This document shows positions 45,694-62,621 of a DNA stretch of 64,000 nucleotides, in pieces. Each line of letters starts with the position of its first letter. Positions within the stretch are counted from its first letter, which is position 1. Location: the NCBI GenBank assembly GCA_947259075.1, contig CAMYKQ010000038.1:18750-82749 (forward strand), in the 5' to 3' direction. A program made the translations under genes and the position numbers. The notes beneath the pieces are model-generated. The model ran no database searches. It was given only the letters and a program-made list of their open reading frames with translations, and was not told the DNA's origin. This DNA comes from an uncultured Gammaproteobacteria bacterium (GTDB taxonomy: Bacteria > Pseudomonadota > Gammaproteobacteria > DRLM01).

Positions 45694-48600
45694 TTAATAG
45701 GTGCCTTGCAGGCGCAGGAACCAGCCGTGTACCGAGTAGTCGTTGTCGGAGAATTCACTGTCGGAGAAATCGGTGAAATTGTAGCCGCCGCCGACGCGCA
45801 CATGCTCCATGGCACGCCACATCACGTCGGCGGCCCAGCCTTGGCGCTGGTCGTCGGTCTCTTGCTGGCTTAACAGCCGGTATTCGGCGCCGAGGTCGAT
45901 GCGCGGGCGGATACGGTAATTGAGCCGGTTGATGGACAAGAAGGTAGTGGTGGCGATGCTGGGGCGGCCGCCCGCGCGTTCTTCTTTCATGCGCAACGCC
46001 AGTTTGTCCACCCATTCCAAGGCGGGCGTGAGCTCCAGCGACCATTCGATGGAGGCGATGTCGCGGCTGATGTTTTGCATATCGCCGGCGCCGAGACTGA
46101 GCGGGCGCTGATCGGCTTGGCGGGTGTAGCGCGCCAGGGCGTTGAAACGGTCGCTGGCCACGGGGCGGTAGGCTAGCCCTAAGCTGCTTTCTTCAAACTC
46201 CGCTTCCACGACATCGTTGTCGAGGTCGCGGCTGAGGCTGTAGCGGTATTTGCCCAGCAGGGTGTAATCGGGATCGAGCTTCAATTCCGCGCTATTGGTC
46301 GAGAGGAATTGCTCGCGTTCTTGTACCCCGCTTTCGCGGCGCAGTTCGTTGCGGGTGCTGGCGCTGAGTCCGCGCGGATGGCTGTAAGACAAGCCGGTGG
46401 CGATGGCGTAGCGGTCCGAGCCGCCGCTGGCGGCTTGGATCTTGCCCAGTTCCGCCGCCAGCAATAATTGCAGGCCGCGCCGCAGCCGCCATTTTTGTTC
46501 GGCGCCGATCAAGGAGACGTTGCGGTCGCCTTGGTCCGCTACTTCCCATTGGTATTCGGAATAGACCTTGCCGTCACGGCCCAGCGGTGATTGGGCGCCG
46601 ACGATGGTGGTATTGCGGCCGTTGTTTTGCATATCGCGGCTGAGGCGCTGGGTGAGGTAGAGGCGGTTGCCGTCGAGATTGAATTCCGCGCCCAATTCCG
46701 CGGCCTGCCCCAGGCTGCCGCTGATGCCTTTGGCCTTCAAGGTCAAGGCGGAGCTGAGGCTGTAATCAACGCCGATACCGGTTTGATCGTTGTCCGCGCC
46801 GCTGAGGGTGAATTGCTGCTCAATGGAGGCGGTGAGTTTTTCGGTGACGCGCAGACGCAGCTCGGCGGCCATCAGGCTGCTGTCATTGATGCCCGTGGCG
46901 GCGTTGCTGGTCTCTTTTTGCTGGTATTCCGCCGTGGCGCTCCAGCGTTCGGCGGCATGGCGCAGTTGCGCCGTCGTGGTACTGCTTTCGCTGTCACCGC
47001 TGGCGGACAGGATCTTTTCCTGATCTTGGCGCAGCAACACCTTGTCACGCTCGCTCACTTGCAGGCTCATGTTCAGTCCGCTTTTCTCCGACGAGATTTC
47101 ACTGCTATTGCCGTTGGAGATGAAGCCCGGCCCCAGGCGTTTCATGTAGGCGCCCATGCGATAGCGGTTGGCCTGGCCGAACCATTCGCCGATGTCCATT
47201 TCCGCGGCGAGTTTCCACGCTTGGCCGCTGCTGGTGTCGAGCGGCGTGGTTTCCTTGAAGCTGAGACCGCCGTCGTCACTGTAGAAGCTCTGGCCGTCGC
47301 TGCCTTCGCTCTGCGCCATTTCGGCGAGCAGGCGGGTGCCCTTGCCCAAGCGGATTTCGGTGTCGAGGCCTTGCAATTGATATTGTCCGGCGGCGCCTTC
47401 GTCTTGCACGTAGGTGCCGCCGATGGCGACGTGGTCGTTGAGCTGCTGGCGCACACGGCCGCCGCTGGCGCTCTTCTCGAAGAAGGCGGCTTCGGTTTCA
47501 TAGTCCACTTCGATGGAGACGGGATTGCCGCCCAGCAGCGCGCGATCGACGAGGCGGCTGTCGGCTTGGGTGCTGGCCAGCGGCCGGGTGAAGAGGATGC
47601 GGCCTTCGACGTAACGGATATTGTAATCGGTGTTTTGCTGCTGCGGCTGGCGTGAGAGCACCAGGCCGGTGTCTTTATCGCGCACCACCAACGTGACTTG
47701 TTCGCTGCCTTCGATGATGTCGCCGTGGCTCAAATAATAGAGTGAGCCGCCGGTGGCGCGCAGTTCGTCGCGCACGTGCATTTGCCGCACCGCCGCGCTG
47801 AATACCGCGACTTGGGTATCGGGGGCGCCGTATTGAGTGCGCGCCAGGCTTTGATAGGCGAGACGGCCGCCGAAGAGGGTGCGCTGATAGGTGGCGAGTT
47901 CGGTGTCGGTGAAATTCACCGGGTAGTTGCCGATCACCGCATGCAGTTCATCGCTGTCCACCGCGAGATAGAATTTGCCGCTGCTCTCGCTGTCGTAGAC
48001 CACGGTGCTGTCGTCGCCGTAGACCGGATAGAGTTTGTCGGGATCGATGTTGGTGAGCAGGCGGTCGTTCTCGGCGCGGTCGAGGTCTTTGAACATATCG
48101 CCCAGCTCGTTCGTGCCGCTGTCGAAGGCGGAGGTGACGAGGTATTTGCCCGCGATCACGCCTTTCAAGTAATAGGCAATGCGGCCCTCGCTGTAGAATT
48201 GCGAGGCGCCATCCATGCCCGCCCCCTGCACATAACCCTTGGCCTGCATCTGGCCGATCTTGCCGTCGGCGAAGGCGAGCAGGAAGAGTTTGGAATCGCG
48301 CACCTCGATATCGCGGCTGATGCGCCCGCTGTTGCCCGCCGGATCGCTCACGTTCACCTCGATGCTGCTGTGGCCCAGTGGCAGGGTCACGGTGGTGCTG
48401 AAGCGGCCGTCGTCTTGCAGCGCCACCTCTTTGGCGTTGACGCTAACCTTATTGCCCGGCTCGGTGGCGCCGCTCACCACCAGCACCGGCGAGGTGAGTG
48501 CCGCGTCCTTGGGCGGGAAGTTCACCGCGAGGCGCGGCACGGGTTGCACCAGCAGATACAGCGCGCCGTTTTCATCGCGTGCGCTCACCTTGACCTTCAA

Positions 48601-51600
48601 GTCCACCACGCGGGTGAAGTTGGCCTCGTTGCGCAGCAGCAGGGTGAAGAAGTTGACACCCTGTTTGAGTTTGATGTCGGCGGCGAAGCGGCCCGCGGCT
48701 TCGACGGGCAAGCGCCGGTCATCCAGCTGCACGATATTGCCCGGCTCGGTGCGCCCGTGCAGACGGAAGCCCATGACGATCTCTTCTGGCGCGGCGCGCG
48801 CCACGACATCGCGCGCGTCGGCGTAATAACCTTGTTCATCATCGCGCGCGCCGTAAGGCACGCGGACTTCACCGGCGGGCAGGTTTAAACTGGGCACGGC
48901 GATACGCGCCAGCGAGGACTTATCCTGCGCGCTGGTCAACTGAATATCGAACTCCGTGGCCGAGGCCGGCTCGATTTGGGTTTGGAAGACGCCGCCACCC
49001 TGCAATGGCAGTGTTTTACCGTTGATGACGGCGCCGGGTTCGGCGCGGTATTGATCGGTGACGCTGATGGTCTCGACCTTGCCCACCAGACCTTTGATCT
49101 CCACGCGGCGGTTCAGCTCGCGGCCCTCGGGCAGGCCGTTGCTCGCCATGGGCCGCCGCGAGCCGAAGCCGCGCACCACCAGCCGCTCACGCGGGATGTC
49201 TTCCTCTTCCATGAGATATCTCGCCGCCGCTTCGGCGCGTTCTTGCGAGAGGCGTAGATTGGCCTCATCGCTGCCGATGGAGTCGGTGTGGCCTTCGATC
49301 ACCACCTTCTCTTCCGGGAAGCGCAACAACAGCGCCGAGGATTCGCGCAGCGCCTGCCGCGCGGCGGGGCTGAGCTGGGACGAACCCAGTTCGAAGGCGC
49401 CGCCGGTGAGATTGACGGCGATGGCCGAGCTGCGATTGACGCCCACTAAACGCCGCGCGCTGCGCGCGACGCCGTCATCGGCGTAATCCAGCTCCAGTTG
49501 ATATTCGTAAATCTCGCCGCCTTCGAGCAAGTCGCCGTGATCGTCGCGCGCATCCCATTCGATGACGGGCGGCGGCGCGCCCTCGCCGCGCAGGGTGCGC
49601 ACGGTCTGGTGCGCGGCATTGTTCACGGTGAACAACCAGGCGTTCACCTTTGCTTTGCTATCGATGTTGACGCTGAGCCGCAGCGGTTGTTCGAGTTTGC
49701 CGCTGTTGATATTGATGAGATCATCCACGCTGGTGAGGCCGAGTTTGATGTCGCCGTTGGGCAGCGCCAGCGAATAACCGTTGACCAGCGCGGTGAGCAT
49801 TTCCACGCTGCCGAAGACGCTGGCGGGTTTTTCACCGAGTTCGGTTTGCGCGCGCAGGCCGTGGTTGGCGGCGCGGCCTATGATCTCGACCTCGTGCTGG
49901 TAAATCACGCCGAAATTGGCCTTGGCGAGCAGACCGGGCGTGATGTTCACCACGGTGATTTCCTCGGTCGTGACTTCGGCGCCGGCGTCCAGCGCCTGCA
50001 GATTTATTTTCAGCGCGCGCGGTCCCGGTTTGACCGCGGGGAAGTGGTAACGGCCGTGTTCATCGGTGAGGGCGTAGCTGCCGTTGTCCAGCACCACCAT
50101 GGCGCCGCTCACGCCTTTTTCGCCCTGGTCCTGTTTGCCGTTGCGGTTGGGGTCTTGGAAGACCTTGCCGATGATGGTGCCGAGATCGAAGACCGGATCG
50201 AGCGTCACGCTCACCCGGGCCTCGGCGTTATTGGAGATGTAGCAGACATCGCAGACGTCGAGGGCGTAAACGGTGTTGACGTATTCGCGCGGCGTGGCGC
50301 CCGCGCCGACGATCAATTGATAGCTGAGCGTGGTGTAGCCCTGTTCGCCGGGATCGGCGCTGCCATTGCCGTTGCTGTCCACCCGCGCGAGCAGGGTGCC
50401 GAGGCCGAAGATCAAGGGCCGGTGACCCGCCGGGTCGGGCGCCAGCGCGCCATTGAGGCGGGTGCTGCCGGGCACGTATTTGAAATTGGGCGGCAGGGCG
50501 TCATGCAGTTTGACTTGCAGCACGTCCTTGTCGGTGATGTTTTTGATGATGAGCGTATAGGTGACGACATCGCCGATCACCACCTCGTCTTTGTTGGCGA
50601 GCTTGGTGATGTCGAGCACGCGGCCTTGAGTGAAATACACCTTGGGCTGCGTGAGCAACACGATATTGTCGCTGATGTCGGTGGCGCGCAGGGTGGCGAC
50701 GCCGATGGTGTTGGAGCGGATCTGGGCGATGGCGCTGCCGTCGGCGCCGGTGGGCGCGCCGGCTTGGGTGATCGTATCCAAGGCGCCGCGATCGGAATCG
50801 AACACGACGGTTTTGCCCGGCACCCGCAAGCCGCTGGTGTCGATGAGGGTGGCGCTGAGCGTGCTGGCGGCGCTGCCGTCGGCGATGACGATGAGCGGTT
50901 GCGCGGTGACGATGGAGGCGAGCGGATCGACGCCGAACACGGTGCTGACGGCTAGGCCGTTGCCGTCGCCGGGATCGCCGTCGGCGTCACCCGCGCTCAC
51001 CGCTTGCGGCGCGGCGGGCGTGGCGCTGTCATCGACCGTGGCGCTGAAGACGCTGGCGCCGCTTACCAGCGGGGCGTTGGCGCTGAAACGCAATTGCAGA
51101 TTGCCGCTGGCGCTGAGTTTGGCGCCGAGTTTGACGCTCATGGTGGCGCCGCTGATGCTGGCGCAGTATTGGCCCGCGGCAGGCGCGGGGCACGCGGCCG
51201 CGAGCGCGCCGCCGTTGACGCTGAAGCCGGTGATGGCCAGCCCCATGAAGCCGGTGGGCGCGGTGACGCTGAGCAGATCGACGCCGCTGTCGCCGGGGTT
51301 GATGGCGGGCAGCACGTCGAAGGTAAAGGCGATGCCGGTGGCGCCCACCACCACGCTGGCCGGGGTGATTTCGCCCACGGCCGCGGTGACGGCATTGGCG
51401 TTGTCGTCGTTGTCGATGCTGTGCACGTGTTGCGCGATCGCGCCCAGGGTGGCGTTGAGCGGATTGCTGAGATTGACCACGACGGTCTCGTTGCTCTCCG
51501 TATCGGCGTCGTCGATGATCGCGAGGCTGATGTCCTTGCTGGTCTCGCCGGGATTGAAGATGAGCGTGCCGCTGGCGAGGGTGTAATCCACGCCGCCGCC

Positions 51601-54600
51601 GGTGGCGGTGCTGGCGGGATCGACGCCGTAATCCACGCTGACGGGCAGGCCGCTGGCGGCGGAGAGCGTGACGGTGATTAATGCGCTGGGGATATTCTCC
51701 AGCGCATTGCCGCCGGCGGCGGCGAAGGCGGCGCTGGGCGCGGCGTCGTTATCGTTGAGGGTGTAGCTGTGTTGCGGCGTCGCGCCGAGGATGGCGTTGA
51801 CGGGCGCGCTTAAATTGATGACCACGGTTTCGTCGCTTTCGTCCAAGGCGTCGTCGTTCACCGCGAGCGAGATGGCCTTGAGGGTGTCGCCGGGGTTGAA
51901 GGTGAGCGTGCCGCTGGCGAGGGTGTAATCGACGCCGCCGCCGCTGGCGGTGCCGGCGGCGTCGATGCTGTAATTGACGGTGATGATTTGGGTGCTGGCC
52001 GTGGAGAGCGTGACATTGACGCTGACCGGCGTGAAGGCTTCATCGCCGTTGGCGCTGGCGGCGGCGAAGTTGATTACCGCGGTGTCGTTGTCGCTTACGT
52101 TTACCGTGATGTTGGGAATGGCGAGGGCGTTGTAGTTCAAATCCGCGCTCGCGGCGCCGTGGGTGATGCTGGCACTGTGCGGGCCTTCGGCGATGGCATC
52201 GTCGATGGCGATGACGGTGACGGTCTGCGCGTTATTCCAATTGAGCGGAGTGAAGGTGAGCGCGACGGCCGTGCCCGCGCCGGCGCCCAAATCGGCTTGC
52301 GCGTCGGGGGTGACGGTAATGACGACGTTGGCGCCGGGCGCGGAGTCGAGCACCACGGTGTAGCTGTCGCCGGCGCCGCCCTCGCTGGCCGTGGTCGCGC
52401 CGCCGGACTCGTTAAACGTGACGCCGGGCAGATCGTTGTCGCTGATGGACACCACGATATTGGGAATGGCGAGGGCGTTGTAATTTAAATCCGCGCTCGC
52501 GGCGGCGTGGGTGATGACGGCGCCGTGCGGACCTTCGGCGCTGGCGTCGTCGACGGCGGTGACGGTGACGGTCTGCGCGTTGTTCCAATTGAGCGGGGTG
52601 AAGCTGAGCGCGACGGCCGTGCCCGCGCCCGCGCCTAAATCCACTTGCGCATCGGGGGTGACGGTGATGACGACGTTGGCGCTGGGCGCGGAGTTGAGCA
52701 CCACGGTGTAGCTGTCGCTGCCCGGGCCGGTTTCAGCGACGCTGGTGCCGCCGCCGGATTCGCTCAGGGTCACGCCGGGCGTGTCGTTGTCGGCGATGTT
52801 CACCGTGATAGTGGGGATGGCGAGGGCGTTGTAGTTCAAATCCGCGCTCGCGGCGCCGTGGGTGATGGTGGCGCTGTGCGGACCCTCGGCTATCGCGTCG
52901 TCCACCGCGGTGACGTTGACGGTCTGCGCGCTATTCCAGTTGAGCGGGGTGAAGCTGAGCACGACGGCCGTGCCCGCGCCCGCGCCCAAATCCACTTGCG
53001 CATCGGGGGTGACGCTGACGGTGACGTTGGCGCTGGGCGCGGTGTTGAGCACCACGGTGTAGCTGTCGCCGGCGCCGCCTTCGCTGGCCGTGGTGACGCC
53101 GCCGGATTCGTTGAGCGTCACGCCGGGCACGTCGTTGTCGCTGATGTTCACGAGCACATTGGCGATGACCAGGCCGTTGTACGCGGCATCGGCGCTGTTC
53201 GCGCTGTGGGTGATGCTGCTGTTGTGCGGGCCTTCGGCGCTGGCGTCATCCACCGCGGTGACGGTGACGCTCTGCGCAAGATTCCAGTTGAGCGGGGTGA
53301 AGCTGAGCACCACGGCCGTGCCCGCGCCGCCGCCTAAATCCACTTGCGCGTCGGGGGTGACCGTGAGGGTAACATTCGCCGCCGGTTGCGTGGCGAGCAC
53401 TAAGGTGTAGCTGTCGCTGCTCGGTCCGGTCTCGTTGACATTGGTGGCGCCGCCGGATTCGCTGATCGTCACCGCGGCCGCGTCGTTGTCGTTCACGGTG
53501 TAAACCTGTTGCGGGGTGGCGCCGAGGCTGGCGTTGCTGGGATTGGCAAGATCGATCATAACGGTTTCATTGCCTTCGGCGATGAGGTCATCGTTCACCG
53601 CGAGGCTGATGACTTTGCTGGTCTCGCCGGGGTTGAAGGTCAGCGTGCCGTTGGCGAGGGTGTAATCGATGCCGCCGCCGCTGGCGCTGCTGGCGCCGTT
53701 CACCGCGTAATCCACGGTGACGGTTTTACTCGAGGCGGCGGACAAGGCCACCGTGATGTTCACCGGCGTCACGGATTCCGCGCCGCTGGCCGCGGCGGCG
53801 GCGAAGCTCACGCTGGGCGCGGGGTCGTCGTCGGTGATGGTCGCGGTATGCACGGTCGTGCCGCCCGCGAAGGCATTGACGGGCGTGCCCATGGTCACAA
53901 CGACGGTTTCGCCGTCTTCGTCGAGCGCGTCGTTGACGACGGTCACGGTGATATCCGCGCTCAAACTGCCCGCGCTGATAATGAGAGGGCTGGCGGTGAT
54001 GGTGTAATCCGCCGGGTTGTTTGCCGTGCCGCCCAGGGTGAAGGGCAGGCTGACGTTCTGCGCCGAGACTTGTGACAGTTGCGCGGTGATGGTGAGCGTG
54101 CCCGCGTTTTCGGCGCCGCTTTGACTGGCGGCGGTGAAGCTGACTTGCGGCAAGACCGTCACGCCTTGCGTGTTGGCGTCCGCCGCGTCGCCATCGGCAT
54201 TGCCCGCGGTGGTGGCCTGCGCGGCGATAGAGCCGGTGCCGGTGTCGTCGACAGTGGACGTGAAGTTGCCGCTGCCGAGTGCGCCGGGCGCATCCGCGTT
54301 GAAGCTGATCTTGATGTTGGTGCCGGTTACGCTGACCTTGCTCCCCAAGCGGATGGTCATCACTTGTCCCGCGACGCCTGCGCAGTATTCACCCGCGGCG
54401 GGGGCGGGACAACTGCCCGACGCCGTTTGCGCGCCGCCGCCCAGCGATACGCCGGTGACGCTCAAACCGCCATAGCCCGCCGGGGCGGTGATGGCGATTT
54501 GATCGATGCCGGTGTTGCCGGGATTGATAGCGGGCAGTACATCGTAGGTGAAGTTGATGCCGCTGCTGGCGGCCGGTACCGCGGCGGGATCGATTTCAGC

Positions 54601-54780
54601 AACGACCGTGGTGACGGCGGCGTTTTCAGCGGTGACGCTGATTTGTCCCGAGGAGAGCAGGGTGACGCTGCCGCCACCGGGGTCGGTGGCTTCGTTAGTC
54701 GCGGTGCCCGCGCCATGGGCAAAGAGGGACCACAACAGCCCTGCTATGCACAAAAGGCCGGCGCGCATGCGTTGCGGCAT
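45694..54780 (-). CDS. Giant (~3030-3060 aa) secreted multidomain cell-envelope protein. Domain order: signal peptide, DUF11-like N-module, Calx-beta domains, 4 tandem 116-aa repeats, Big_1, DUF11, SdrD-B-like, internal OmpA-like peptidoglycan-binding domain, Ig-like domains, and a ~865-aa C-terminal beta-rich (barrel-like) domain.
   Basis: Probable start MPQRMRAGLLCIAGLLWSLFAHGA (signal peptide). Calx-beta motifs (VNDALDEDGETVVVTM, DDALDESDETVVINL). OmpA-like segment FPEEKVVIEGHTDSIGSDEANLRLSQERAEAAARYL...NRRVEI at about 49130-49430. Alternating-hydrophobic C-terminal 865 aa ending WFLRLQGTY. Confidence 0.8.
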   Translation of the reverse strand: MPQRMRAGLLCIAGLLWSLFAHGAGTATNEATDPGGGSVTLLSSGQISVTAENAAVTTVVAEIDPAAVPAASSGINFTYDVLPAINPGNTGIDQIAITAPAGYGGLSVTGVSLGGGAQTASGSCPAPAAGEYCAGVAGQVMTIRLGSKVSVTGTNIKISFNADAPGALGSGNFTSTVDDTGTGSIAAQATTAGNADGDAADANTQGVTVLPQVSFTAASQSGAENAGTLTITAQLSQVSAQNVSLPFTLGGTANNPADYTITASPLIISAGSLSADITVTVVNDALDEDGETVVVTMGTPVNAFAGGTTVHTATITDDDPAPSVSFAAAAASGAESVTPVNITVALSAASSKTVTVDYAVNGASSASGGGIDYTLANGTLTFNPGETSKVISLAVNDDLIAEGNETVMIDLANPSNASLGATPQQVYTVNDNDAAAVTISESGGATNVNETGPSSDSYTLVLATQPAANVTLTVTPDAQVDLGGGAGTAVVLSFTPLNWNLAQSVTVTAVDDASAEGPHNSSITHSANSADAAYNGLVIANVLVNISDNDVPGVTLNESGGVTTASEGGAGDSYTVVLNTAPSANVTVSVTPDAQVDLGAGAGTAVVLSFTPLNWNSAQTVNVTAVDDAIAEGPHSATITHGAASADLNYNALAIPTITVNIADNDTPGVTLSESGGGTSVAETGPGSDSYTVVLNSAPSANVVITVTPDAQVDLGAGAGTAVALSFTPLNWNNAQTVTVTAVDDASAEGPHGAVITHAAASADLNYNALAIPNIVVSISDNDLPGVTFNESGGATTASEGGAGDSYTVVLDSAPGANVVITVTPDAQADLGAGAGTAVALTFTPLNWNNAQTVTVIAIDDAIAEGPHSASITHGAASADLNYNALAIPNITVNVSDNDTAVINFAAASANGDEAFTPVSVNVTLSTASTQIITVNYSIDAAGTASGGGVDYTLASGTLTFNPGDTLKAISLAVNDDALDESDETVVINLSAPVNAILGATPQHSYTLNDNDAAPSAAFAAAGGNALENIPSALITVTLSAASGLPVSVDYGVDPASTATGGGVDYTLASGTLIFNPGETSKDISLAIIDDADTESNETVVVNLSNPLNATLGAIAQHVHSIDNDDNANAVTAAVGEITPASVVVGATGIAFTFDVLPAINPGDSGVDLLSVTAPTGFMGLAITGFSVNGGALAAACPAPAAGQYCASISGATMSVKLGAKLSASGNLQLRFSANAPLVSGASVFSATVDDSATPAAPQAVSAGDADGDPGDGNGLAVSTVFGVDPLASIVTAQPLIVIADGSAASTLSATLIDTSGLRVPGKTVVFDSDRGALDTITQAGAPTGADGSAIAQIRSNTIGVATLRATDISDNIVLLTQPKVYFTQGRVLDITKLANKDEVVIGDVVTYTLIIKNITDKDVLQVKLHDALPPNFKYVPGSTRLNGALAPDPAGHRPLIFGLGTLLARVDSNGNGSADPGEQGYTTLSYQLIVGAGATPREYVNTVYALDVCDVCYISNNAEARVSVTLDPVFDLGTIIGKVFQDPNRNGKQDQGEKGVSGAMVVLDNGSYALTDEHGRYHFPAVKPGPRALKINLQALDAGAEVTTEEITVVNITPGLLAKANFGVIYQHEVEIIGRAANHGLRAQTELGEKPASVFGSVEMLTALVNGYSLALPNGDIKLGLTSVDDLININSGKLEQPLRLSVNIDSKAKVNAWLFTVNNAAHQTVRTLRGEGAPPPVIEWDARDDHGDLLEGGEIYEYQLELDYADDGVARSARRLVGVNRSSAIAVNLTGGAFELGSSQLSPAARQALRESSALLLRFPEEKVVIEGHTDSIGSDEANLRLSQERAEAAARYLMEEEDIPRERLVVRGFGSRRPMASNGLPEGRELNRRVEIKGLVGKVETISVTDQYRAEPGAVINGKTLPLQGGGVFQTQIEPASATEFDIQLTSAQDKSSLARIAVPSLNLPAGEVRVPYGARDDEQGYYADARDVVARAAPEEIVMGFRLHGRTEPGNIVQLDDRRLPVEAAGRFAADIKLKQGVNFFTLLLRNEANFTRVVDLKVKVSARDENGALYLLVQPVPRLAVNFPPKDAALTSPVLVVSGATEPGNKVSVNAKEVALQDDGRFSTTVTLPLGHSSIEVNVSDPAGNSGRISRDIEVRDSKLFLLAFADGKIGQMQAKGYVQGAGMDGASQFYSEGRIAYYLKGVIAGKYLVTSAFDSGTNELGDMFKDLDRAENDRLLTNIDPDKLYPVYGDDSTVVYDSESSGKFYLAVDSDELHAVIGNYPVNFTDTELATYQRTLFGGRLAYQSLARTQYGAPDTQVAVFSAAVRQMHVRDELRATGGSLYYLSHGDIIEGSEQVTLVVRDKDTGLVLSRQPQQQNTDYNIRYVEGRILFTRPLASTQADSRLVDRALLGGNPVSIEVDYETEAAFFEKSASGGRVRQQLNDHVAIGGTYVQDEGAAGQYQLQGLDTEIRLGKGTRLLAEMAQSEGSDGQSFYSDDGGLSFKETTPLDTSSGQAWKLAAEMDIGEWFGQANRYRMGAYMKRLGPGFISNGNSSEISSEKSGLNMSLQVSERDKVLLRQDQEKILSASGDSESSTTTAQLRHAAERWSATAEYQQKETSNAATGINDSSLMAAELRLRVTEKLTASIEQQFTLSGADNDQTGIGVDYSLSSALTLKAKGISGSLGQAAELGAEFNLDGNRLYLTQRLSRDMQNNGRNTTIVGAQSPLGRDGKVYSEYQWEVADQGDRNVSLIGAEQKWRLRRGLQLLLAAELGKIQAASGGSDRYAIATGLSYSHPRGLSASTRNELRRESGVQEREQFLSTNSAELKLDPDYTLLGKYRYSLSRDLDNDVVEAEFEESSLGLAYRPVASDRFNALARYTRQADQRPLSLGAGDMQNISRDIASIEWSLELTPALEWVDKLALRMKEERAGGRPSIATTTFLSINRLNYRIRPRIDLGAEYRLLSQQETDDQRQGWAADVMWRAMEHVRVGGGYNFTDFSDSEFSDNDYSVHGWFLRLQGTY
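52074..53475 (-). repeat. Four near-identical in-frame tandem repeats (~348-351 bp, 116-117 aa each) inside the giant gene.
   Basis: Protein units VT(I/L/F)(S/N)ESGG...TVTPDAQVDLGAGAGTAV.LSFTPLNWN.AQTVTVTAVDDA.AEGPH...ITH.A.SAD.NYNALAIPNI.VNISDND. The periodicity is also visible in antisense ORFs at 52163, 52511, 52862 and 53213. Confidence 0.85.
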
Positions 54781-54959
54781 GCGTGGATCGCCCATGGCGT
54801 GACGACTTCGCACTATGTGCTCATCGACGTTGCTGACATCGGGAACTAAGACGAATTCACGCGGGCCTGCGTGCAAACGCGGACGCGCGCCGTGGCGCGC
54901 CGTGCCCTAGCGTGAAATCATCCGAGCCGTGCCGGCATGTAAGCCGGCAAGGCCCGGTC

Positions 54960-55571
54960 TTAGTTCTTGACCGCCTGGAACATCAGCGCGAAGGTCTTGT
55001 TGGCGCCCAAGCTGACGCTGCTGTTGGCCTGACCCGTTACCGCGCCCACCGTGATGGTGCCCGCCACATGGGAGGCGAAGTCATCCGGAGCGCCGAGGGC
55101 GTCGGTTTGCGCCGTGCCGCCGTTAGCCGCGGTATAGAGGTTGGCGATGGTGGCGTTGTCGGCTTGAGCCGAGTCGTATTTCAGCGAGGCCGCCGTGTAG
55201 GTAAAGCCGGTGCCGCTGGTATCCAAGACGTCTTGGAAGCGGACGTCGGTCAAGGCGATCGCCGTGGCGTTACGCACGAAGATCATGAACTTGAGCGGTG
55301 TGCCGACCGGGACGGTCACCGAGGTGGCGCCACCGTTACAGCCGGCATCCGTCGGACTGCTGGCCAAGCAATTGCCGCTGGCGTCGTAGACTTGTTTCAC
55401 CAGCGCGAGCTGCGTGGAATTGACGGTAACGTTGCCTGATCCCGTCAAGCTCACGCCGCCGCCGCCCGGGTCGGTGACCGCGTTGGTGGCCGCCTGCGCG
55501 CCGAGCGTGAACAGGCTGGACAGCAAAGACAGCCCTATGACTAGGGATAGGCGCTTGAATAAAAATTTCAT
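54960..55571 (-). CDS. Small secreted DUF11-domain protein.
   Basis: Signal peptide MKFLFKRLSLVIGLSLLSSLFTLGAQA. LALVKQV...KFMIFVRNATAIALTDVRFQDVLDTSGTGFTY fits the DUF11 pattern. The mature N-terminus ATNAVTDPGGGGVSL is shared with the giant protein (ATNEATDPGGGSVTL). Confidence 0.65.
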   Translation of the reverse strand: MKFLFKRLSLVIGLSLLSSLFTLGAQAATNAVTDPGGGGVSLTGSGNVTVNSTQLALVKQVYDASGNCLASSPTDAGCNGGATSVTVPVGTPLKFMIFVRNATAIALTDVRFQDVLDTSGTGFTYTAASLKYDSAQADNATIANLYTAANGGTAQTDALGAPDDFASHVAGTITVGAVTGQANSSVSLGANKTFALMFQAVKN

Positions 55572-56333
55572 CTTCGTCTCCTCAATAAAACGGACCTATT
55601 GATCTGGGCCGCAGCCGGTCCGCTGAGCGGCTGCGCCAGGTGTTGGCCATCCTTTGCCGGTGACTTTCATGTCGTGACATTTCCTGAGCCCCTTCCAGGG
55701 CTGGACTTTTTTGGCGAGGACAAGAGCTTGAGCGAACGCGAACGCGTTATGACGGCGGGCGGAAGGGATGAGATTGCCCAGATAAACTGTGAGAGTGCTG
55801 TGTGGGTACTGCTTCGTTAGCACTGTTTGCTCAACTCGTTGTTCCCCGTACCCCTCGGGTGCTGCTCATAAAGCCAATCCCACTAAAATTACAAATCAAG
55901 TCGTTATGGTTTTTCGTGAGGCATGCTTGGGCCGGCATCGCGCGCTAAAGCGATGTGCCGGGGATTACAACTTGGTTTTGCCAAGCGGTAAGGCCGGTGC
56001 TTAAAACATGAACTCCGTCATGGAAAGATGTCGGCAGCAGGGGGGATTAATTGAGTGAAGTATGCAGGGGGTTGCTGGGGAGCGTATCTGCATAAGGCCG
56101 AAGTGAATTGAGGGCGCCATGCCACGGCTTAGCGTATTGGGGTAACGGGTTTGCGCGCGGGGGGCACCCCCCGCACCCGGAAAAATATTTGCCCGTCCGG
56201 CGGAAATACAGCCGTGCCGTATGGGGAGTAAGGCCGCCCTGCCGTGGCGGCTTGATGCGGTGTATTGCTGGGATGGTGGGTGCGGCGGTGCGGGCGTCAA
56301 TGCTTGCCGCGGCGCGTTCGACATCTTTTGAGC

Positions 56334-57257
56334 TTATCGCGGCGCGAATGTTTCGTAACTGTGTTCGATGAGGGCGCCGCTGGTCGCGCCATGCTCGGGA
56401 AAGGTGGCAAACCCCGCGATGATGATGACATGCCCGGTGGCAAAGGTTTCCTGTCCCGGGAACGCGTGCTGGTTGATTCTTGCCGTCAATCTATCGAGAA
56501 GCGCCAGCGCGCCGTCGATATTGGTTTCAGGCAGCAACAAGGCGAATTCGTTGTCAGCGTAGCGCGTCAGCGTGTCGGAAGTGCGGATGAAATTGTGCAA
56601 GAACTTACCCAGCGAATAAAGTAATAAATCACTGGCTTTGCTGCCATGCTGGGCTTGATAAGCGCTGAAATCCATGATGCCAGTAATGACCACGGAAAAC
56701 TTGCGTTCATAGCGTTGTGAACGGGAGAGCTCCATGGCCAATATTTCGTGAAAATGTTTTTTGTTGTGCAGTCCGGTGAGTTCATCGATGGTGGCGAGCC
56801 GGTGCAGCTTGCGCGTGACGTTATTCAGCCCGTCGGCGTGTTGTTTTACTCGGTCCGATAATAAGCGATTATCGTGCATCAGCTGGTATTTTTCCGCGGC
56901 GCGTTCGATGACGGTGACGATGATGCCGCTTTCGTCGGTGGGCACGGTAACGCAATCATAGGCGCCCGCTTCCAAGGCATGTTTGGCGATATTCAGCTGT
57001 ACGCGGTGTACGACCGCCACGGTTTGGGTGTTCGTTGAGCGCAAACGGACGTCTTGGATCAGGCGCAGGCCGCCCGCGCTGTCGCGCGTGGTGTTGATCG
57101 CGATAACCGCGAACTGAGTTTTTCTCAACATGCTCAGGGCTTGGGCCGCGTCCGTGGCGCGCATCACGTTGTGTCCGCGCTGGGTGAGCGCCGTGGAGAT
57201 TGAGCTGGCGACGGTTTCTTCGTCGTCGACAATGAGGATGTGCGCTGGATTGGACAT
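56334..57257 (-). CDS. Degenerate REC-GGDEF protein: pseudo-receiver and catalytically inactive GGDEF with a retained I-site.
   Basis: Receiver-like N-terminus ILIVDDEE, but the phospho-acceptor position reads VIAIN (Asn, not Asp) and the conserved Thr and Lys are lost. GGDEF motif replaced by RYADNEF. RTSD I-site retained. Confidence 0.7.
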   Translation of the reverse strand: MSNPAHILIVDDEETVASSISTALTQRGHNVMRATDAAQALSMLRKTQFAVIAINTTRDSAGGLRLIQDVRLRSTNTQTVAVVHRVQLNIAKHALEAGAYDCVTVPTDESGIIVTVIERAAEKYQLMHDNRLLSDRVKQHADGLNNVTRKLHRLATIDELTGLHNKKHFHEILAMELSRSQRYERKFSVVITGIMDFSAYQAQHGSKASDLLLYSLGKFLHNFIRTSDTLTRYADNEFALLLPETNIDGALALLDRLTARINQHAFPGQETFATGHVIIIAGFATFPEHGATSGALIEHSYETFAPR

Positions 57258-57288
57258 TCAGTCGTTACATTTGTAAATATTGTTTGGG

Positions 57289-58281
57289 TTATAGGTCATG
57301 GCTGTAGCCGGTCACTTTGTTGCGTCCTGAGCGTTTGGCGCTATACAGGGCCTTGTCGGCCTTTTCGATAAGGATGCCGGGTTCGTTGCCGTCATCGGGG
57401 AAGTTGGCCAATCCGATGCTGACGGTGATCTTGCCGCCGGGTTGGCATTCTCCCCCGTAGAACGCATGTTCCGCGATATGCTGGCGAAGATTGTTGGCCA
57501 AGATTAAGGCGCCGTCCTTCGTGGTTTCAGGAAGAATCAATACGAACTCCTCCCCGCCGTAGCGGGCCACGGTGTCGGATTGGCGCAGGCGATGGCTGAA
57601 TATGTCGGCCAGATTTTTTAATAGCTCGTCACCTTGCGGATGACCGTGAGTGTCGTTGTAGTGCTTGAATTGATCGACATCGATGAAGAGCAAGGAATAT
57701 TGGCGCTTATGGCGCAAGGCGCGCGCGTGCTCGATGCCGATGGCTTCGAAAAAATAGCGGTGGTTGTAGAGGCCGGTCAGACCGTCCTTAACCGCCAGTT
57801 CTTGCAAGACGTGATTGACCTTTTCCAGTTCGACATTGTGTTTTTTCAGGCGGCTGACCAGCAGCTTGTTGTCATGAATAAGCCGGATTCGTTCCACGCT
57901 GCGATTAATGACATTGGTCACGATCTCGAATTGTTCGAAAGGTTTAATCAGATAATCAGTCGCGCCGGCGCGCAGGGCGCACACCGCCGAATGCAGGGAG
58001 GCGTAGCTGGTTATGATGATGACTTGGGTGTCGGGCTCGCTGGCCTTGATTTTCTCCAGCACCTCCAGTCCGCTGATATTGGGCAGGCGGATATCGACCA
58101 GCACCAGCGGGTGGCGCCCTTGTTCGAATAAGGCTAAAGCGTGTTCGCCGTCGGCGGCCGTGGTGACTTTGTGGCCTTCATCCGTCAAGAGTTCTTCGAG
58201 GACGTTGCGCAGGCTTTCTTCGTCATCGATCACTAAAATATCGATACCGGAACTCATGTCATTATGGCCGGCATTATTCAT
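57289..58281 (-). CDS. Response-regulator diguanylate cyclase (REC-GGDEF).
   Basis: LVLVDIRLP receiver Asp. RQSD I-site. RYGGEEFVLILPE. Confidence 0.85.
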   Translation of the reverse strand: MNNAGHNDMSSGIDILVIDDEESLRNVLEELLTDEGHKVTTAADGEHALALFEQGRHPLVLVDIRLPNISGLEVLEKIKASEPDTQVIIITSYASLHSAVCALRAGATDYLIKPFEQFEIVTNVINRSVERIRLIHDNKLLVSRLKKHNVELEKVNHVLQELAVKDGLTGLYNHRYFFEAIGIEHARALRHKRQYSLLFIDVDQFKHYNDTHGHPQGDELLKNLADIFSHRLRQSDTVARYGGEEFVLILPETTKDGALILANNLRQHIAEHAFYGGECQPGGKITVSIGLANFPDDGNEPGILIEKADKALYSAKRSGRNKVTGYSHDL

Positions 58282-59279
58282 TTTTTTGGCGAAGACAGGC
58301 CGGGGTTCGAAGTCTCGGCCTTGATGACTTGATTTCGCCCCGATTTTTTTGCCTTGTAAAGCGCTTGGTCGGCTTGGTGAAGTACGCTGGAAGCGTCGTC
58401 GCCGTCTTCCTTGAAGGTTGAGACGCCGATGCTGGCCGTGAGTTTGCCGCCAGGCTGAGTTTCTCTGCCCGCGAAGGGATGATTCTCAACTTCTTCTCTG
58501 ATGCTTTCCGCCAGGATGGTGGCGCCTTCCTTGCCGGTTTCCGGCAGTAAGAGCACGAATTCCTCGCCGCCATAGCGCGCGGCGATATCGGAGGTGCGCA
58601 AGCGCTCGCGCAGCAGCTCGCCGAGCTTATGCAGCAACTGATCGCCCAAGGGGTGTCCATGGGTATCGTTGTACTTTTTGAAATAATCCACGTCGATAAA
58701 GATGAGTGAGAAGGGACGCTGGTGGCGCCGCGCGCGGGCGACTTCCATGGTCAGGGTTTCTTGAAAATAACGGTGATTGTACAGTCCGGTGAGGCCGTCG
58801 CGGATGGCGAGCTCCCGCAATACTTGGTTGACGTTTTCGAGTTCATTGTTGTAACTCTTGAGTTTCTCCACCAGCTGCTTGTTTTCGATGACGAGACGGA
58901 TTTTCTCGGTGGCGCGATTGACCACCGCGGAGATCAGCTCCAAGTCTTCAAAGGGTTTTATTAAATAGTCATAAGCGCCGGCGCGCAGCGCGTTCAAAGC
59001 GGTGTCGAGCGAGGCGTGGCTGGTCATGATGACGACTTGGGTCTCCGGATTTATTTCTTTAATTTTATTCAGAAGATCGATGCCGCTCATGCCGGGCATG
59101 CGGATGTCGGTGATGACCAGGACATAGTGGGATTGCGTGAAAAAGGTCAGCGCCTCTTCCGCGCTGGCTGCCGTGGTAACCGGATAACCGTCGTCGGTCA
59201 GCACCTCATGCAGTACTTCGCGCAGGCTTTCTTCGTCGTCCACGACGAGGATGGGCAGTGAATTCTTTTCACTCATCAA
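58278..59279 (-). CDS. Response-regulator diguanylate cyclase (REC-GGDEF), paralog of the downstream gene.
   Basis: VLVITDIRMPGMSG. RTSD I-site. RYGGEEFVLLLPE. 4-bp overlap with the next gene. Confidence 0.85.
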   Translation of the reverse strand: MMSEKNSLPILVVDDEESLREVLHEVLTDDGYPVTTAASAEEALTFFTQSHYVLVITDIRMPGMSGIDLLNKIKEINPETQVVIMTSHASLDTALNALRAGAYDYLIKPFEDLELISAVVNRATEKIRLVIENKQLVEKLKSYNNELENVNQVLRELAIRDGLTGLYNHRYFQETLTMEVARARRHQRPFSLIFIDVDYFKKYNDTHGHPLGDQLLHKLGELLRERLRTSDIAARYGGEEFVLLLPETGKEGATILAESIREEVENHPFAGRETQPGGKLTASIGVSTFKEDGDDASSVLHQADQALYKAKKSGRNQVIKAETSNPGLSSPKK

Positions 59280-59454: not shown

Positions 59455-61314
59455 TCAGCCCGCGGCGGCGCGCGCGTCAACCTCCTTGGGCGAGACCGTG
59501 GCCGGCAGGGTGATGACGAAGCTGGCACCCTGTCCCGGCTCGCTTTCGATATGAATCTCGCCTTGGTGATCGCGGATGATGCCATAGCTCACCGATAGCC
59601 CCAGGCCGGTGCCTTTGCCGACCGCCTTGGTGGTGAAGAAGGGCTCGAAGATCTTGGCTTGAATTTCCTTGGGGATGCCGGGGCCGGTGTCGCTCACGCG
59701 CACCTCGAGCTTATCGCCGTCCAGCAAGCGCGTGCTCACGGTGACCGAACCGTTCTTGCCGTCCATGGCCTGTTGGGCGTTGATCATTAAATTCATCAGC
59801 ACTTGCTGCAGCTGATTGCCATTACCCATGAATTTGGGCAGGTCCGGCGTGAGCTCTTTGTTGAGCTTGACCTGGTTGATGGTGAGCTGGTGATCGACGA
59901 TGGCGCAGGCCTCGCTTACCACGTTATTGAGCTCGGTGATTTCCATCGCCACTTTTTCCTGACGGGCGAACCTCATGAGATTTTCGATGATCTCCTTGCA
60001 GCGTTTGGTCTCTTTTTCGATGAGACTCAAGTGCCGGTACACGGGGCTTTCCTTGTCGACCTTGCGCATCGACAGTTGCGCGTAGCCGAGGATGCCCGCC
60101 AGCGGGTTCTTCACCTCATGGGCGATACCGGCGCTGAGCTGGCCGAAGGCGGACATTTTTTCCGACTGCACCAGCGCGGCCTGCGCCTGTTTGAGTGCCT
60201 CCTCGCGGCTGTGCAGCTCGGTGGCCATGTGATTGAAGCTGTGGGCGAGCTCACCCATCTCGTCATTGCTGGTGATGTCGACGTGGATATCGAATTTACC
60301 CTGCCCGACCTCGCGGGCGGCGAGGGAGAGCTGTTCCACCGGCCGGGTGATTTGCCGCGACCAAAACAGGCTCATGAGCGCGGAGAGGACCAGCAGACCC
60401 AAGCTGACGCCGGTTAAGTTGTTGAGCAATTCGCGCGCGGTCAAATAGGCGGCGGATTTGGGTATCTGCGTGCCCAGCACCATTTTCGACACCTCGACGC
60501 GGGCGAAGGCGCCCACCATCTCGTTGCCGTTGGCGAGGTATTCCAATGAACTGGCCGCGGTTTGGCCTTTTATCAAAGGTTCCAGCGCGCGCAGGGTGTC
60601 CAAGGGCAGCCAGTCCAGCGGCGCGCGGGCGCTGACGTGTTGCGGCTCGCGGCTGACGAGAATGTTTCCGGCGTTGTCGACGATGAAGATCTCGAACACG
60701 CTGGTGCGGTCCGCCACCCGCAGCAAGGCGTCCATTTTAATGGTGGCGGCGGCGATGACGGGCGCTTCGGTGTCGGTCAAGGCCACCGGCGTGGCGAGGA
60801 CGAAGGCCGGGAGTTTATCGTTGAGGGTGGCATTGAACACGAAAGGCCGTTCCGTGGTGATTTTGTCGAAGGGCAGCGGGTTGGCGTCGCGAAAGGCTTG
60901 CAGGTCTTGTTTGGCGAGCCCCGCGCCCTGCAGGCCGCGGGCGTCGAACACCGTGGCTTGTTCAGTTTTGTTTTGATAGAGCGTGACGGCGATGAATTCC
61001 GGGAAGTCTTCGAACAGACCCTCCAGTAATTTGGCCTTTTCCTGTTGCGGCAGGAAGGGGTCGTACATCACGCGGCCGAAGACCTGTAAGCGCTCGTTAT
61101 ACCCTTGCACGATGGAGTTCACCTCTTCCGCGGCGTGCACCGCCACCAAGGAGGTCAAGTCACGAATATAGGTGCGCTTGTCGCTGTGAAACAGATTGGC
61201 CATGGTGAAGGTGATGACGCTCACCACGATGGTAATCACCACCAGCAAGGACAGCAGGATTTTGAAGCGCAGCGGAATGCGCAGGCCGCGGCGTGGCGTG
61301 GTAACGGCGCTCAT
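59455..61314 (-). CDS. Sensor histidine kinase with a periplasmic (Cache-like) domain, HAMP, HisKA and HATPase.
   Basis: TM1 ILLSLLVVITIVVSVITFTM. ~270-aa periplasmic region. TM2. HAMP. H-box SEKMSAFGQLSAGIAHEVKNPLAGI. G-boxes DTGPGI and GKGTGLGLSVS. Confidence 0.85.
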   Translation of the reverse strand: MSAVTTPRRGLRIPLRFKILLSLLVVITIVVSVITFTMANLFHSDKRTYIRDLTSLVAVHAAEEVNSIVQGYNERLQVFGRVMYDPFLPQQEKAKLLEGLFEDFPEFIAVTLYQNKTEQATVFDARGLQGAGLAKQDLQAFRDANPLPFDKITTERPFVFNATLNDKLPAFVLATPVALTDTEAPVIAAATIKMDALLRVADRTSVFEIFIVDNAGNILVSREPQHVSARAPLDWLPLDTLRALEPLIKGQTAASSLEYLANGNEMVGAFARVEVSKMVLGTQIPKSAAYLTARELLNNLTGVSLGLLVLSALMSLFWSRQITRPVEQLSLAAREVGQGKFDIHVDITSNDEMGELAHSFNHMATELHSREEALKQAQAALVQSEKMSAFGQLSAGIAHEVKNPLAGILGYAQLSMRKVDKESPVYRHLSLIEKETKRCKEIIENLMRFARQEKVAMEITELNNVVSEACAIVDHQLTINQVKLNKELTPDLPKFMGNGNQLQQVLMNLMINAQQAMDGKNGSVTVSTRLLDGDKLEVRVSDTGPGIPKEIQAKIFEPFFTTKAVGKGTGLGLSVSYGIIRDHQGEIHIESEPGQGASFVITLPATVSPKEVDARAAAG

Positions 61315-62621
61315 GGGAAGCGTCCTTGCACCAGTTGCGAGCGAAAGCTGACATTGCCGGCGGGGTCCAGGGCTTGCACCACCAGCACATTGCTGCCGCT
61401 CTCCAATTCGAGCTCATATTCGAAGTCGCCGTCGGCCCGCGGGGTGACCGGCTTGCCGGCGATCAGCAGCCGTGCGCCGGGCTCGGTGTGGCCGCGCACT
61501 CTTTGTTTGGACTCAGTGGTGATAGCCGGAGGAAATTCCACGCTCAGCAGCGGCGGGTCGGTGTCGCGCACTAATTCGAAGGCGCGCGCCGCGCTGGGCG
61601 GGCTTTCCGCCAAGGACGTCAGGCCGCTGACCCGCCAATAGTATTTCCCCGGCTTTAAATTGCCGTGAGTGTAGTGTTTCTCGGCGAGCGTGGTGGAGAT
61701 CACGATGTTGCCGAAGGCGGGATCGCGCGCCAGACTGAAATGAAAACGTTCCGTTTTTTCCTTCGTGTCCCAGCGGAATTGCACTTGCGGCGCTAGATCG
61801 CGGTAGTAATACACGCTGGCGTCGCCGGGTGCCGTGGGCAGCGGCGCCTTGGGCGGGGTGATGGCGCGGGTCGCCACGCCCGCGTCGCTGATGGTGGCGG
61901 CTTGATTGGCTTCGATGCGCAAGGCTTTGCCGCTGGCGGTGAGTAATTCCGCCATGCCGCTGAACACCGCGAGGGTGGATGTGTTATCGGGATTCACGGT
62001 GATCTTGAAGTCGGTCTCGCCCCGCGCCGCGGCGGTGGAGCTTAGCCGCGCCACGCCGTTGGGCGTGGCGACTTCCAAATGAATCGCGTCGCCGCTACTG
62101 GCCGTGAGTGTGCCGGACAGTTCGCCGTCCACCGCCATGGAGAAGGCGCGCCGGCCGCGCAATATAGGATCGCTTTCCATGCGGCGTATCACCACCAGCG
62201 AGTTCTCGCCCAGTTGCAGACGGTTATTTTCATCGAAGGCGATGACCGCCGTGGCGCCTTTCTGTGTTTGCACGGCGTCGCGATCGCGCAGCGCCATGCC
62301 GGCTTGGGCGTCGCGCCAGGCAATGGCGTCGGCCTGTTTGCTTTTCACCGTTTGCTGCGTGGTGCTGAGGGTGGCTACCACCGAGCTCGCATCGCCCAAA
62401 TGACCGTCCGCGCCGGGTCCCGACACCAATATATCCCGTCCGCCGGCGCCGCCGCGCGCCGCGCCCTTATCGCCGCGCATCAGGTCTTGGAAGCCGGTGC
62501 CGAGGGGAAAGAAGGTTTGCATCATGCCGAGGATGATGGCAAAGAAAACCAGCACCAAAACGATCGCGGCGACCGTTTCGGCGGATTTCGCCATAGCTGA
62601 CTTTAGCCGTCCAGGCACCAT
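61311..62621 (-). CDS. Membrane-anchored FecR-domain protein with a C-terminal Ig-like domain.
   Basis: N-terminal TM AAIVLVLVFFAIILGMM. FecR-like segment AVIAFDENNRLQLGENSLVVI. C-terminal beta-sandwich-like RVRGHTEPGARLLIAGKPV...ALDPAGNVSFRS. Its stop overlaps the HK start (ATGA). Confidence 0.7.
   Translation of the reverse strand: MVPGRLKSAMAKSAETVAAIVLVLVFFAIILGMMQTFFPLGTGFQDLMRGDKGAARGGAGGRDILVSGPGADGHLGDASSVVATLSTTQQTVKSKQADAIAWRDAQAGMALRDRDAVQTQKGATAVIAFDENNRLQLGENSLVVIRRMESDPILRGRRAFSMAVDGELSGTLTASSGDAIHLEVATPNGVARLSSTAAARGETDFKITVNPDNTSTLAVFSGMAELLTASGKALRIEANQAATISDAGVATRAITPPKAPLPTAPGDASVYYYRDLAPQVQFRWDTKEKTERFHFSLARDPAFGNIVISTTLAEKHYTHGNLKPGKYYWRVSGLTSLAESPPSAARAFELVRDTDPPLLSVEFPPAITTESKQRVRGHTEPGARLLIAGKPVTPRADGDFEYELELESGSNVLVVQALDPAGNVSFRSQLVQGRFP

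Follow-up and report, generated by a model that had tools for sequence, protein, structure and literature searches.

The gene C locus

In this work we analyzed a window of 64,000 nucleotides (the whole stretch of DNA considered here) from the genome of an uncultured gammaproteobacterium (GenBank assembly GCA_947259075.1, contig CAMYKQ010000038.1), in which three neighboring genes on the minus strand code for proteins composed of a receiver (REC) and a GGDEF domain. Paralog A (58278..59279) and paralog B (57289..58281), which overlap by 4 bp, are intact, full-length REC-GGDEF diguanylate cyclases with strong Pfam scores. The third gene, named gene C (56334..57257), starts 31 bp downstream of B and encodes a putative REC-stalk-GGDEF pseudoenzyme of 307 aa, 100% identical to the database protein P0001 and about 33% identical to its own paralogs. 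On the same strand, upstream of A, lies a HAMP-HisKA-HATPase sensor histidine kinase gene (59455..61314). Gene C is followed by genes for a 203-aa secreted protein and a 3060-aa surface protein, with pdxA and rsmA just beyond the giant gene; the genes further downstream are housekeeping genes.

Pfam places a Response_reg domain at residues 7-113 of the gene C product (E 2.4e-14; minus strand 56919..57239) and a GGDEF domain (PF00990) at residues 155-300 (E 7.1e-25; 88.1 bits against a cutoff of 23.8; minus strand 56358..56795), so that the protein belongs to the GGDEF superfamily. The latter match spans only positions 1-147 of the 161 positions of the profile, and the domain is without the final helix and strand of the fold. 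The two domains are joined by a long helical stalk (residues 110-156; minus strand 56790..56930). The AF2 model (mean pLDDT 89.6) shows a receiver fold, a single continuous helix at 110-156 and a GGDEF fold, the last of which matches GGDEF structures in Foldseek searches. The best full-length structural matches are the WspR structures 3BRE and 3I5A (TM 0.65-0.72 over about 305 columns), and the same proteins, from P. aeruginosa and P. syringae, are matched by phmmer with E 1.3e-19 to 1.6e-19 at about 23-24% identity. As modelled, gene C is of the WspR-type architecture, composed of REC, coiled-coil stalk and GGDEF. Stalk residues at coiled-coil core spacing (L126, N130, L133, L144, L151 and L154) are common to gene C and the active paralogs. 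Pfam recognised no output domain in gene C, be it DNA-binding, membrane or of another kind, and the secondary structure elements of the AF2 model are those of REC, stalk and GGDEF only, with no separate membrane helix.

Receiver domain

The residue opposite the phospho-acceptor aspartate is N55 (in AVIAINTTRD), both in a three-way alignment of the paralogs and in the HMMER alignment to WspR (3BRE and 3I5A); its codon, AAC at 57095-57093, was read directly. In the paralog and WspR alignments V83 and V105 take the positions of the conserved Thr and Lys, and in the AF2 model the receiver strands b3, b4 and b5 end at residues 55, 84 and 105. Paralogs A and B each carry the DD pair, the acceptor D, T and K, together with RxSD and RYGGEEF. 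The earlier note had described an Asn acceptor position and the loss of T and K in the third gene, next to two intact upstream paralogs, and these alignments bear out both statements.

The residue set of a canonical phospho-receiver (DD, D, T/S and K) is incomplete in gene C. Its DD pair is present, D12 is missing from the other members of the gene C family, the acceptor column across the family reads N/S/R/A/D, and T and K are gone in every member. Judged from these residues the domain is a pseudo-receiver, specifically an aspartate-less receiver as defined in PMC12632262, and gene C is predicted to be incapable of being phosphorylated.

Catalytic site

The GG(D/E)EF signature of the catalytic site (A-site) is replaced in gene C by ADNEF (residues 234-238; minus strand 56544..56558), as seen in the alignments and in the codons GCT GAC AAC GAA TTC read directly at 56558-56544. 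The segment RTSD(225-228)-TLTRY-ADNEF(234-238) stands opposite RSSD-LAARY-GGEEF of WspR, and RTSD thus lies exactly five residues upstream of the motif, as in the paralogs and as had been claimed for RYADNEF from the letters alone. An alignment with PleD and WspR had been called for in case the active-site motif was misplaced; it was run here, with the PleD sequence and numbering taken from the PDB and with gene C mapped without gaps between its DxLTGL and GGDEF motifs, and it confirms the position given for the active-site motif.

In PleD, D327 is a metal ligand, N335 and D344 contact guanine, and K442 and R446 contact phosphate (PMC7288161). The corresponding residues of gene C are G193 for D327, Q201 for N335 and D210 for D344, the last being kept, while the PleD motif residues G368, G369, E370 and E371 correspond to A234, D235, N236 and E237. 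K442 and R446 are missing: gene C stops where the paralogs run on with AKRSGRNKV, and the segment ALYxAKxxGRN that contains both residues is lost. The features of an active diguanylate cyclase are therefore absent at the motif itself (ADNEF), at G193 and Q201 and in the K442/R446 segment, and by this alignment the catalytic site is more damaged than the earlier note saw. On these grounds the GGDEF domain appears catalytically dismantled, and gene C is predicted to be unable to make c-di-GMP.

The same site has drifted across the gene C family. In 17 orthologs the motif columns read A/N/T/E/D/H, D/E, N/H/T/D, E(Q) and F, which gives a motif x-[DE]-x-[EQ]-F, with both glycines lost in all. A-site positions vary among the orthologs, and one of the seven retained A-site positions (E237) is conserved in at least 16 of the 17.

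Allosteric site

The allosteric c-di-GMP site (I-site) of PleD is made up of R359, D362 and R390, together with R313 from the neighboring domain (PMC7288161). In gene C the primary RxxD motif is RTSD (residues 225-228; minus strand 56574..56585; codons CGC ACT TCC GAC read directly at 56585-56574), which lies opposite R242-D245 of WspR and R359-D362 of PleD. R225 is invariant in 17 of 17 orthologs and D228 is found in 16, with Glu in the other one. The third primary residue, equivalent to PleD R390, is R256 (minus strand 56490..56492), which, as in PleD, follows the RxxD arginine at an ungapped distance of +31. The secondary (trans) site is represented by R179 and R182 (minus strand 56712..56723), both invariant and in ungapped register from DxLTGL; these are the equivalents of PleD R313 and of WspR R198, which we take to be the trans I-site residue of WspR. 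Gene C consequently has RxxD five residues upstream of the motif as well as the equivalents of R390 and R313.

Each of the five I-site positions is the same in 16 or all 17 of the orthologs, the sole change being D to E in one sequence. The chance of drawing five such positions from the polar positions of the same domain is p ~0.011, a value that is only indicative as the sequences are related. R179, R182 and R225 are almost universally conserved in the REC-GGDEF subfamily, active or not, and they are for this reason weaker evidence than R256 and D228. The R256 position is Arg in 17 of 17 gene C orthologs in the family alignment and in all nine gene C copies read from the loci described below; at the same position the 11 co-encoded active paralogs never have Arg (S/N/H/D/Q instead), and the wider homologs are variable.

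An inactive enzyme has no use for a feedback site, and the selective retention of this site leads us to argue that c-di-GMP binding may itself be the function of gene C. The earlier note had proposed gene C as a candidate c-di-GMP receptor; the dead A-site and the conservation of all five I-site residues under purifying selection support this candidacy, at the level of sequence only. A number of other, independent degenerate REC-GGDEF proteins with RxxD (P0108, P0118, P0121 and P0129) show that the pattern recurs. Some degenerate GGDEF proteins that carry RxxD are, however, not known to bind c-di-GMP.

Gene C family and selection

A search of 5.8 billion proteins retrieved the query and 18 relatives at 43-65% identity, almost all of 306-317 aa, below which there is a sharp drop to ordinary active GGEEF proteins at 37% identity or less. 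The family used throughout this work comprises 17 full-length members (43-99% identity) that are nearly all equal in length. A profile search of 1.84 billion representatives gave about three to five family members followed by a continuum of ordinary active REC-GGDEF proteins, and a scan of genome contigs with single-protein patterns found only distant REC-GGDEF or REC proteins and no close locus. The family is small, and is known only from metagenome-assembled genomes (MAGs) and metagenomes of uncultured Gammaproteobacteria. In a taxonomic placement through PdxA, proteins above 70% identity came from MAGs and metagenomes only, and the closest hits that carry a name, at 67-70%, were from a 'Gammaproteobacteria bacterium' MAG, Dickeya and Exilibacterium.

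For the closest ortholog pairs the dN/dS of gene C is 0.07-0.19, the same range as that of the adjacent active cyclase, and the point of C-terminal truncation is common to all orthologs. Gene C is under purifying selection and is a real, functional gene. The presence of the same degeneracies in 17 full-length orthologs means that they are not an error or a chance event. A frameshift or pseudogene was considered as the cause of the short C-terminus and rejected, given that there is no remnant of ALYxAKxxGRN in any of the three frames downstream of the stop codon and that the orthologs end alike.

Genomic context

Exact-protein look-ups identified nine further loci, giving ten in total (the window, L081, L082/L083 and L084 to L090); for P0001 itself the look-up gave no record. 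In all ten, gene C directly follows an active REC-GGDEF gene, at a spacing that ranges from an overlap of 4 bp to a gap of 31 bp, and the pair is placed between surA and pdxA, with contig ends cutting some of the loci (L084 upstream and L085 after gene C). Three of them (the window, L081 and L082/L083) carry a full cassette of lptD, surA, a FecR/Ig-like gene, the kinase, A, B, C, giant surface-protein genes, pdxA and rsmA; for the L082/L083 MAG the pdxA-proximal end is seen on L091. Locus L085 has surA, the kinase, A, B and C but lacks the FecR/Ig-like gene, and gene C is close to the end of its contig. The minimal cassette of L086 to L090 consists of surA, one active REC-GGDEF gene and gene C, followed by pdxA or, where the contig ends, by a partial ORF that was not called; the kinase and giant genes are both missing. 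In L084 the active gene, gene C, pdxA and rsmA are arranged as in the minimal form, the upstream end being cut by the contig. The kinase gene is accordingly found in L081, L082/L083 and L085 in addition to the window, as part of the fuller version of the cassette, and is missing from L086 to L090. As L090 shows, the minimal form occurs in the lineage closest to the window too.

The conserved unit is the active cyclase together with gene C, while the kinase, the second cyclase and the giant or adhesin genes come and go. A literature search for surA, pdxA and GGDEF in combination found no paper. In one homolog in the databases, P0106, a degenerate and an active REC-GGDEF protein are naturally fused.

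Discussion

The best explanation of these data, to which we would give about an even chance, is that gene C encodes a dead WspR-type paralog which has been kept for the binding of c-di-GMP at its I-site and which forms a source-and-sensor pair with the cyclase encoded upstream. According to this explanation gene C would be a diverged paralog of WspR layout that is neither phosphorylated nor making c-di-GMP, and it would bind c-di-GMP, probably as an intercalated dimer, at a complete I-site composed of R225, D228 and R256 with R179 and R182 in trans. Together with the active REC-GGDEF protein encoded immediately upstream it would form a local pair of source and sensor, most likely as a mixed oligomer assembled through the shared stalk and receiver surfaces, so that the product of the cyclase might be read, or fed back, through gene C. 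As there is no output domain, the output would presumably pass through protein-protein contacts. Support for this explanation comes from the loss of catalytic and acceptor residues, the fixation of the I-site, the purifying selection and the invariant pairing; c-di-GMP binding, physical association with the cyclase and any output are what we infer from them. With regard to the mixed oligomer, which is suggested by gene adjacency and shared stalk residues, a homodimer fits the stalk residues equally well. The GGDEF domain is without its last helix and strand, which could disturb its fold and weighs against the explanation as a whole.

A second reading, which we regard as unlikely, is that of an enzyme-pseudoenzyme complex in which product sensing has moved to the dead subunit, so that the cyclase would be subject to feedback inhibition in trans. 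Here (c-di-GMP)2 would cross-link the I-site of gene C to the GGDEF domain of the partner and lock the latter in an unproductive position. The basis for this reading is the reciprocal distribution of the R390 equivalent: the complete primary I-site, that is RxxD plus this Arg, is found only in gene C, and the co-encoded cyclases have RxxD and the trans arginines without that Arg.

With a similarly low probability, gene C may be a regulatory subunit that acts independently of c-di-GMP, pairing with the active paralog through the stalk or the a4-b5-a5 face of the receiver. As two competent GGDEF domains are required for catalysis, it would simply titrate or scaffold the cyclase, in a dominant-negative way or as a coincidence partner, and the conservation of the I-site would then be inherited inertia. 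The invariant adjacency and close spacing with the active paralog, the shared core residues of the stalk including N130, and the natural fusion P0106 all agree with such a role, as does the fact that R179, R182 and R225 are conserved across the subfamily whatever the activity. Pseudo-receivers are moreover known or proposed to pair with genuine receivers, as in WhiI/BldM and CmrT/CmrR (PMC12632262). What this account leaves unexplained is R256, fixed in gene C but variable in active relatives and non-Arg in the co-encoded partners, and it also has to face the fixation of D228 and other exposed charged I-site residues while the A-site drifts, at a paralog identity of only about 33%.

The earlier note had further suggested that gene C, as the last gene before the DUF11/giant genes, could be the output effector of the cascade. 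Worked out in full, such a cascade would have gene C as the terminal c-di-GMP effector of a kinase-to-cyclase pathway, governing how the DUF11-like and giant surface proteins are expressed, secreted or displayed. This was not borne out, and we consider it improbable. Gene C is indeed the last signalling gene before the 203-aa and 3060-aa proteins in the window, giant genes also follow gene C in L081 and in the MAG of L082/L083 and L091, and a module of about 150 aa, which is free-standing as the 203-aa protein in the window, recurs at the C-terminus of the giants of L081 and L091. The synteny nevertheless weakens the idea of an adhesin-effector cascade: in six loci (L084 and L086 to L090, L084 with its upstream end cut) gene C is kept with one active cyclase and with no kinase or giant gene, and there is no homology between the giant proteins found in the window and in L081. 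Gene C and the 203-aa gene are 763 bp apart; patches of this gap are collinear with the sequence that precedes the counterpart of the 203-aa gene in L091, and the conservation of these patches suggests that the 203-aa gene has its own control region and belongs to a separate transcription unit. Promoter and terminator consensus patterns were looked for in 54800-57400, but neither a site resembling sigma-70 nor a convincing terminator behind gene C on the minus strand came up, which speaks neither way. A c-di-GMP riboswitch, considered as an alternative output, was not detected, as no Rfam family reached its gathering score in the whole window and the match in 54700-56500 was at chance level (E 0.5); under the effector hypothesis a protein effector would then be needed. 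The lack of a recognisable DNA-binding, membrane or other output domain in gene C counts against this role.

Two remaining readings are contradicted by the data. That gene C is still an enzyme, either a diguanylate cyclase with a non-canonical motif or a protein with another nucleotide-dependent activity, is very improbable: the AGDEF protein VCA0965 of V. cholerae is reported to synthesise c-di-GMP (PMC3974145), and E237 and D210, the equivalents of PleD E371 and D344, are kept, but both glycines, the equivalents of E370, D327 and N335 and the whole K442/R446 phosphate-binding segment are missing, and the residues in their place differ freely from ortholog to ortholog, contrary to the behavior of an active site. 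That it is a decaying duplicate with no function is hardly credible despite its multiple lost motifs and truncated C-terminus, as the ORF is intact at near-equal length in 17 orthologs down to 43% identity, dN/dS equals that of the neighboring active gene, the truncation point is conserved and the AF2 model is confident.

Comparison with known systems

WspR, PleD and DgcR are the best sequence and structure matches of gene C and have in common with it the REC-stalk-GGDEF layout and the I-site residues. WspR oligomerises through its stalk and cross-links its GGDEF domains through I-site-bound c-di-GMP. These proteins are phosphorylatable and active and use the I-site for feedback inhibition, whereas gene C has neither a phospho-acceptor nor a catalytic activity to inhibit.

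PopA has the composition REC-REC-GGDEF, with two receiver domains. Gene C differs in its single receiver with a long stalk, in the missing C-terminal helix and strand and in adjoining an active paralog; this architecture, and the WspR-type proteins being its closest solved relatives, set gene C apart from the PopA family, and orthology is not indicated. PopA (Caulobacter crescentus CC1842, a paralog of PleD) is in other respects like gene C, being of the response-regulator type with a degenerate A-site and a retained RxxD, which in PopA binds c-di-GMP; it goes back to a duplicated active REC-GGDEF cyclase, and the receivers of PopA take part in protein interaction and not in phospho-signalling (PMC2952852, PMC12564702). 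Its role as a c-di-GMP receptor has been verified (PMC2952852; PMC12564702). Gene C is likewise distinct from the PelD family, with no GAF domain in Pfam, no membrane helix in the AF2 model and no polysaccharide genes nearby. PelD is a membrane protein with a GAF domain, which binds c-di-GMP through its RxxD I-site and is encoded in the polysaccharide synthesis operon that it activates. Gene C is predicted to be soluble, has a pseudo-receiver and has no associated synthase. The PelD protein of Pseudomonas aeruginosa is nonetheless a degenerate GGDEF receptor with a Kd for c-di-GMP of 0.5-1.9 uM (PMC12564702), and the likening of gene C to PelD and PopA as proteins with an inactive A-site and a kept I-site is legitimate (PMC2952852, PMC12564702).

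WhiI/BldM and CmrT/CmrR resemble gene C in having a receiver-like domain without catalytic residues that is known or proposed to pair with a genuine receiver encoded nearby (PMC12632262); they are transcription factors, whereas gene C and its partner both carry GGDEF domains and would pair by our inference only. Compared with VCA0965, which remains active (PMC3974145), the damage in gene C is far more extensive.

Degenerate GGDEF domains with a kept I-site are an established receptor class, exemplified by PopA and PelD. [quoted passage not shown] For proteins of this class the pattern described here was predicted by comparative genomics in 2010, and the current understanding of c-di-GMP signalling is left unchanged. 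What is modestly new is that gene C is obligately paired with an active cyclase in the interval from surA to pdxA, that its C-terminal truncation is conserved, and that the R390 equivalent shows a reciprocal pattern. If gene C binds c-di-GMP, a small and sharply delimited family, confined to an uncultured gammaproteobacterial lineage, would join the class of degenerate-GGDEF receptors. The usefulness of this family lies in a catalytic site that is cleanly and completely dismantled and in the obligate genomic pairing with an active cyclase short of one I-site residue; this pairing would make the family a convenient natural system for studying the physical coupling of a local c-di-GMP source and its sensor.

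Position and forms of the cassette

The entire signalling cassette forms an insertion in the conserved lptD-surA-pdxA-rsmA cluster, where it separates surA from pdxA, both in the window (43805-63989) and in the related loci L081-L091 from other genomes and metagenomic contigs. Two forms of this unit were found: a full form, composed of a FecR/Ig-like protein, a sensor kinase, the cyclases A and B, the pseudoenzyme gene C and the giant genes, and a minimal form which consists of C and a single active cyclase.

In the window the first gene of the full form encodes a 436-aa protein (61311-62621, minus strand) with weak matches to the FecR, Ig-like and Glucodextran_B families, two of which barely exceed the Pfam cutoff. 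As this gene and the beginning of the sensor kinase gene (59455-61314, minus strand) share 4 bp, and as the two proteins are also found together in L081 and L082, the 436-aa protein may act as a co-sensor.

Active cyclases of the cassette

The single active partner in three of the minimal loci (L084:1345-2370; L086:8200-9225; L089:8247-9239) resembles a chimera of A and B, with identities of 62-65% and 54-56% to paralogs A and B of L085, respectively; its N-terminus is like that of paralog A and its C-terminal tail like that of paralog B. This pattern suggests that recombination between the tandem paralogs led to a deletion. The partner in L089, a metagenomic contig, carries GSEEF in place of GGEEF, which could be a true variant or an assembly error.

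Paralog B of L085 (L085:8991-10004) combines an intact GGEEF catalytic set with a degenerate receiver, in which Gly occupies the phospho-acceptor position and Ala the Thr position. Receiver decay thus also arose independently in one of the cassette's active cyclases.

Genes and intergenic region following gene C

Gene C is followed by an unusually long intergenic region of 763 bp (window 55572-56333). Patches of it align collinearly, at 78-85% identity, with the ~690 bp that precede the gene for the 203-aa protein in L091. The region had no match in Rfam and may function as a conserved leader or promoter.

The 203-aa secreted proteins of the window (54960-55571, minus strand) and of L091 (L091:1038-1649) are near-identical as judged by eye; in contrast, gene C shares only 59% identity with its ortholog in L082, which belongs to the same MAG as L091. 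The protein matched no Pfam family at E <= 0.01. Over its final ~150 aa it is homologous to a module at the C-terminus of the 2765-aa giant surface protein of L081 (L081:11104-19401; 40% identity, E 2e-28), which is unrelated to it outside that module; this stretch is also similar to the C-terminus of the 3766-aa protein of L091.

The giant surface protein of the window (3060 aa; 45694-54876, minus strand) contains Calx-beta, Big_1 and SdrD_B domains and an internal OmpA domain, and is not homologous to the L081 giant protein (best BLASTP E 0.32). Because its terminal residue is aromatic, a putative C-terminal outer-membrane barrel is suspected. A motif early in the N-terminal region is common to the 203-aa and 3060-aa proteins (ATNAVTDPGGGGVSLTGSGNVTV and ATNEATDPGGGSVTLLSSGQISVT, respectively) and could represent a shared sorting or assembly signal.

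Other degenerate REC-GGDEF proteins

Among the database proteins, P0106 (649 aa) joins a degenerate REC-GGDEF (RRSD...FYREQTF) and an active one in a natural fusion, and P0108 is C-like but more distant, with RTSD...DRSEF and a truncated C-terminus. The RxxD motif is also kept in the independent degenerate REC-GGDEF proteins P0118, P0121, and P0129.
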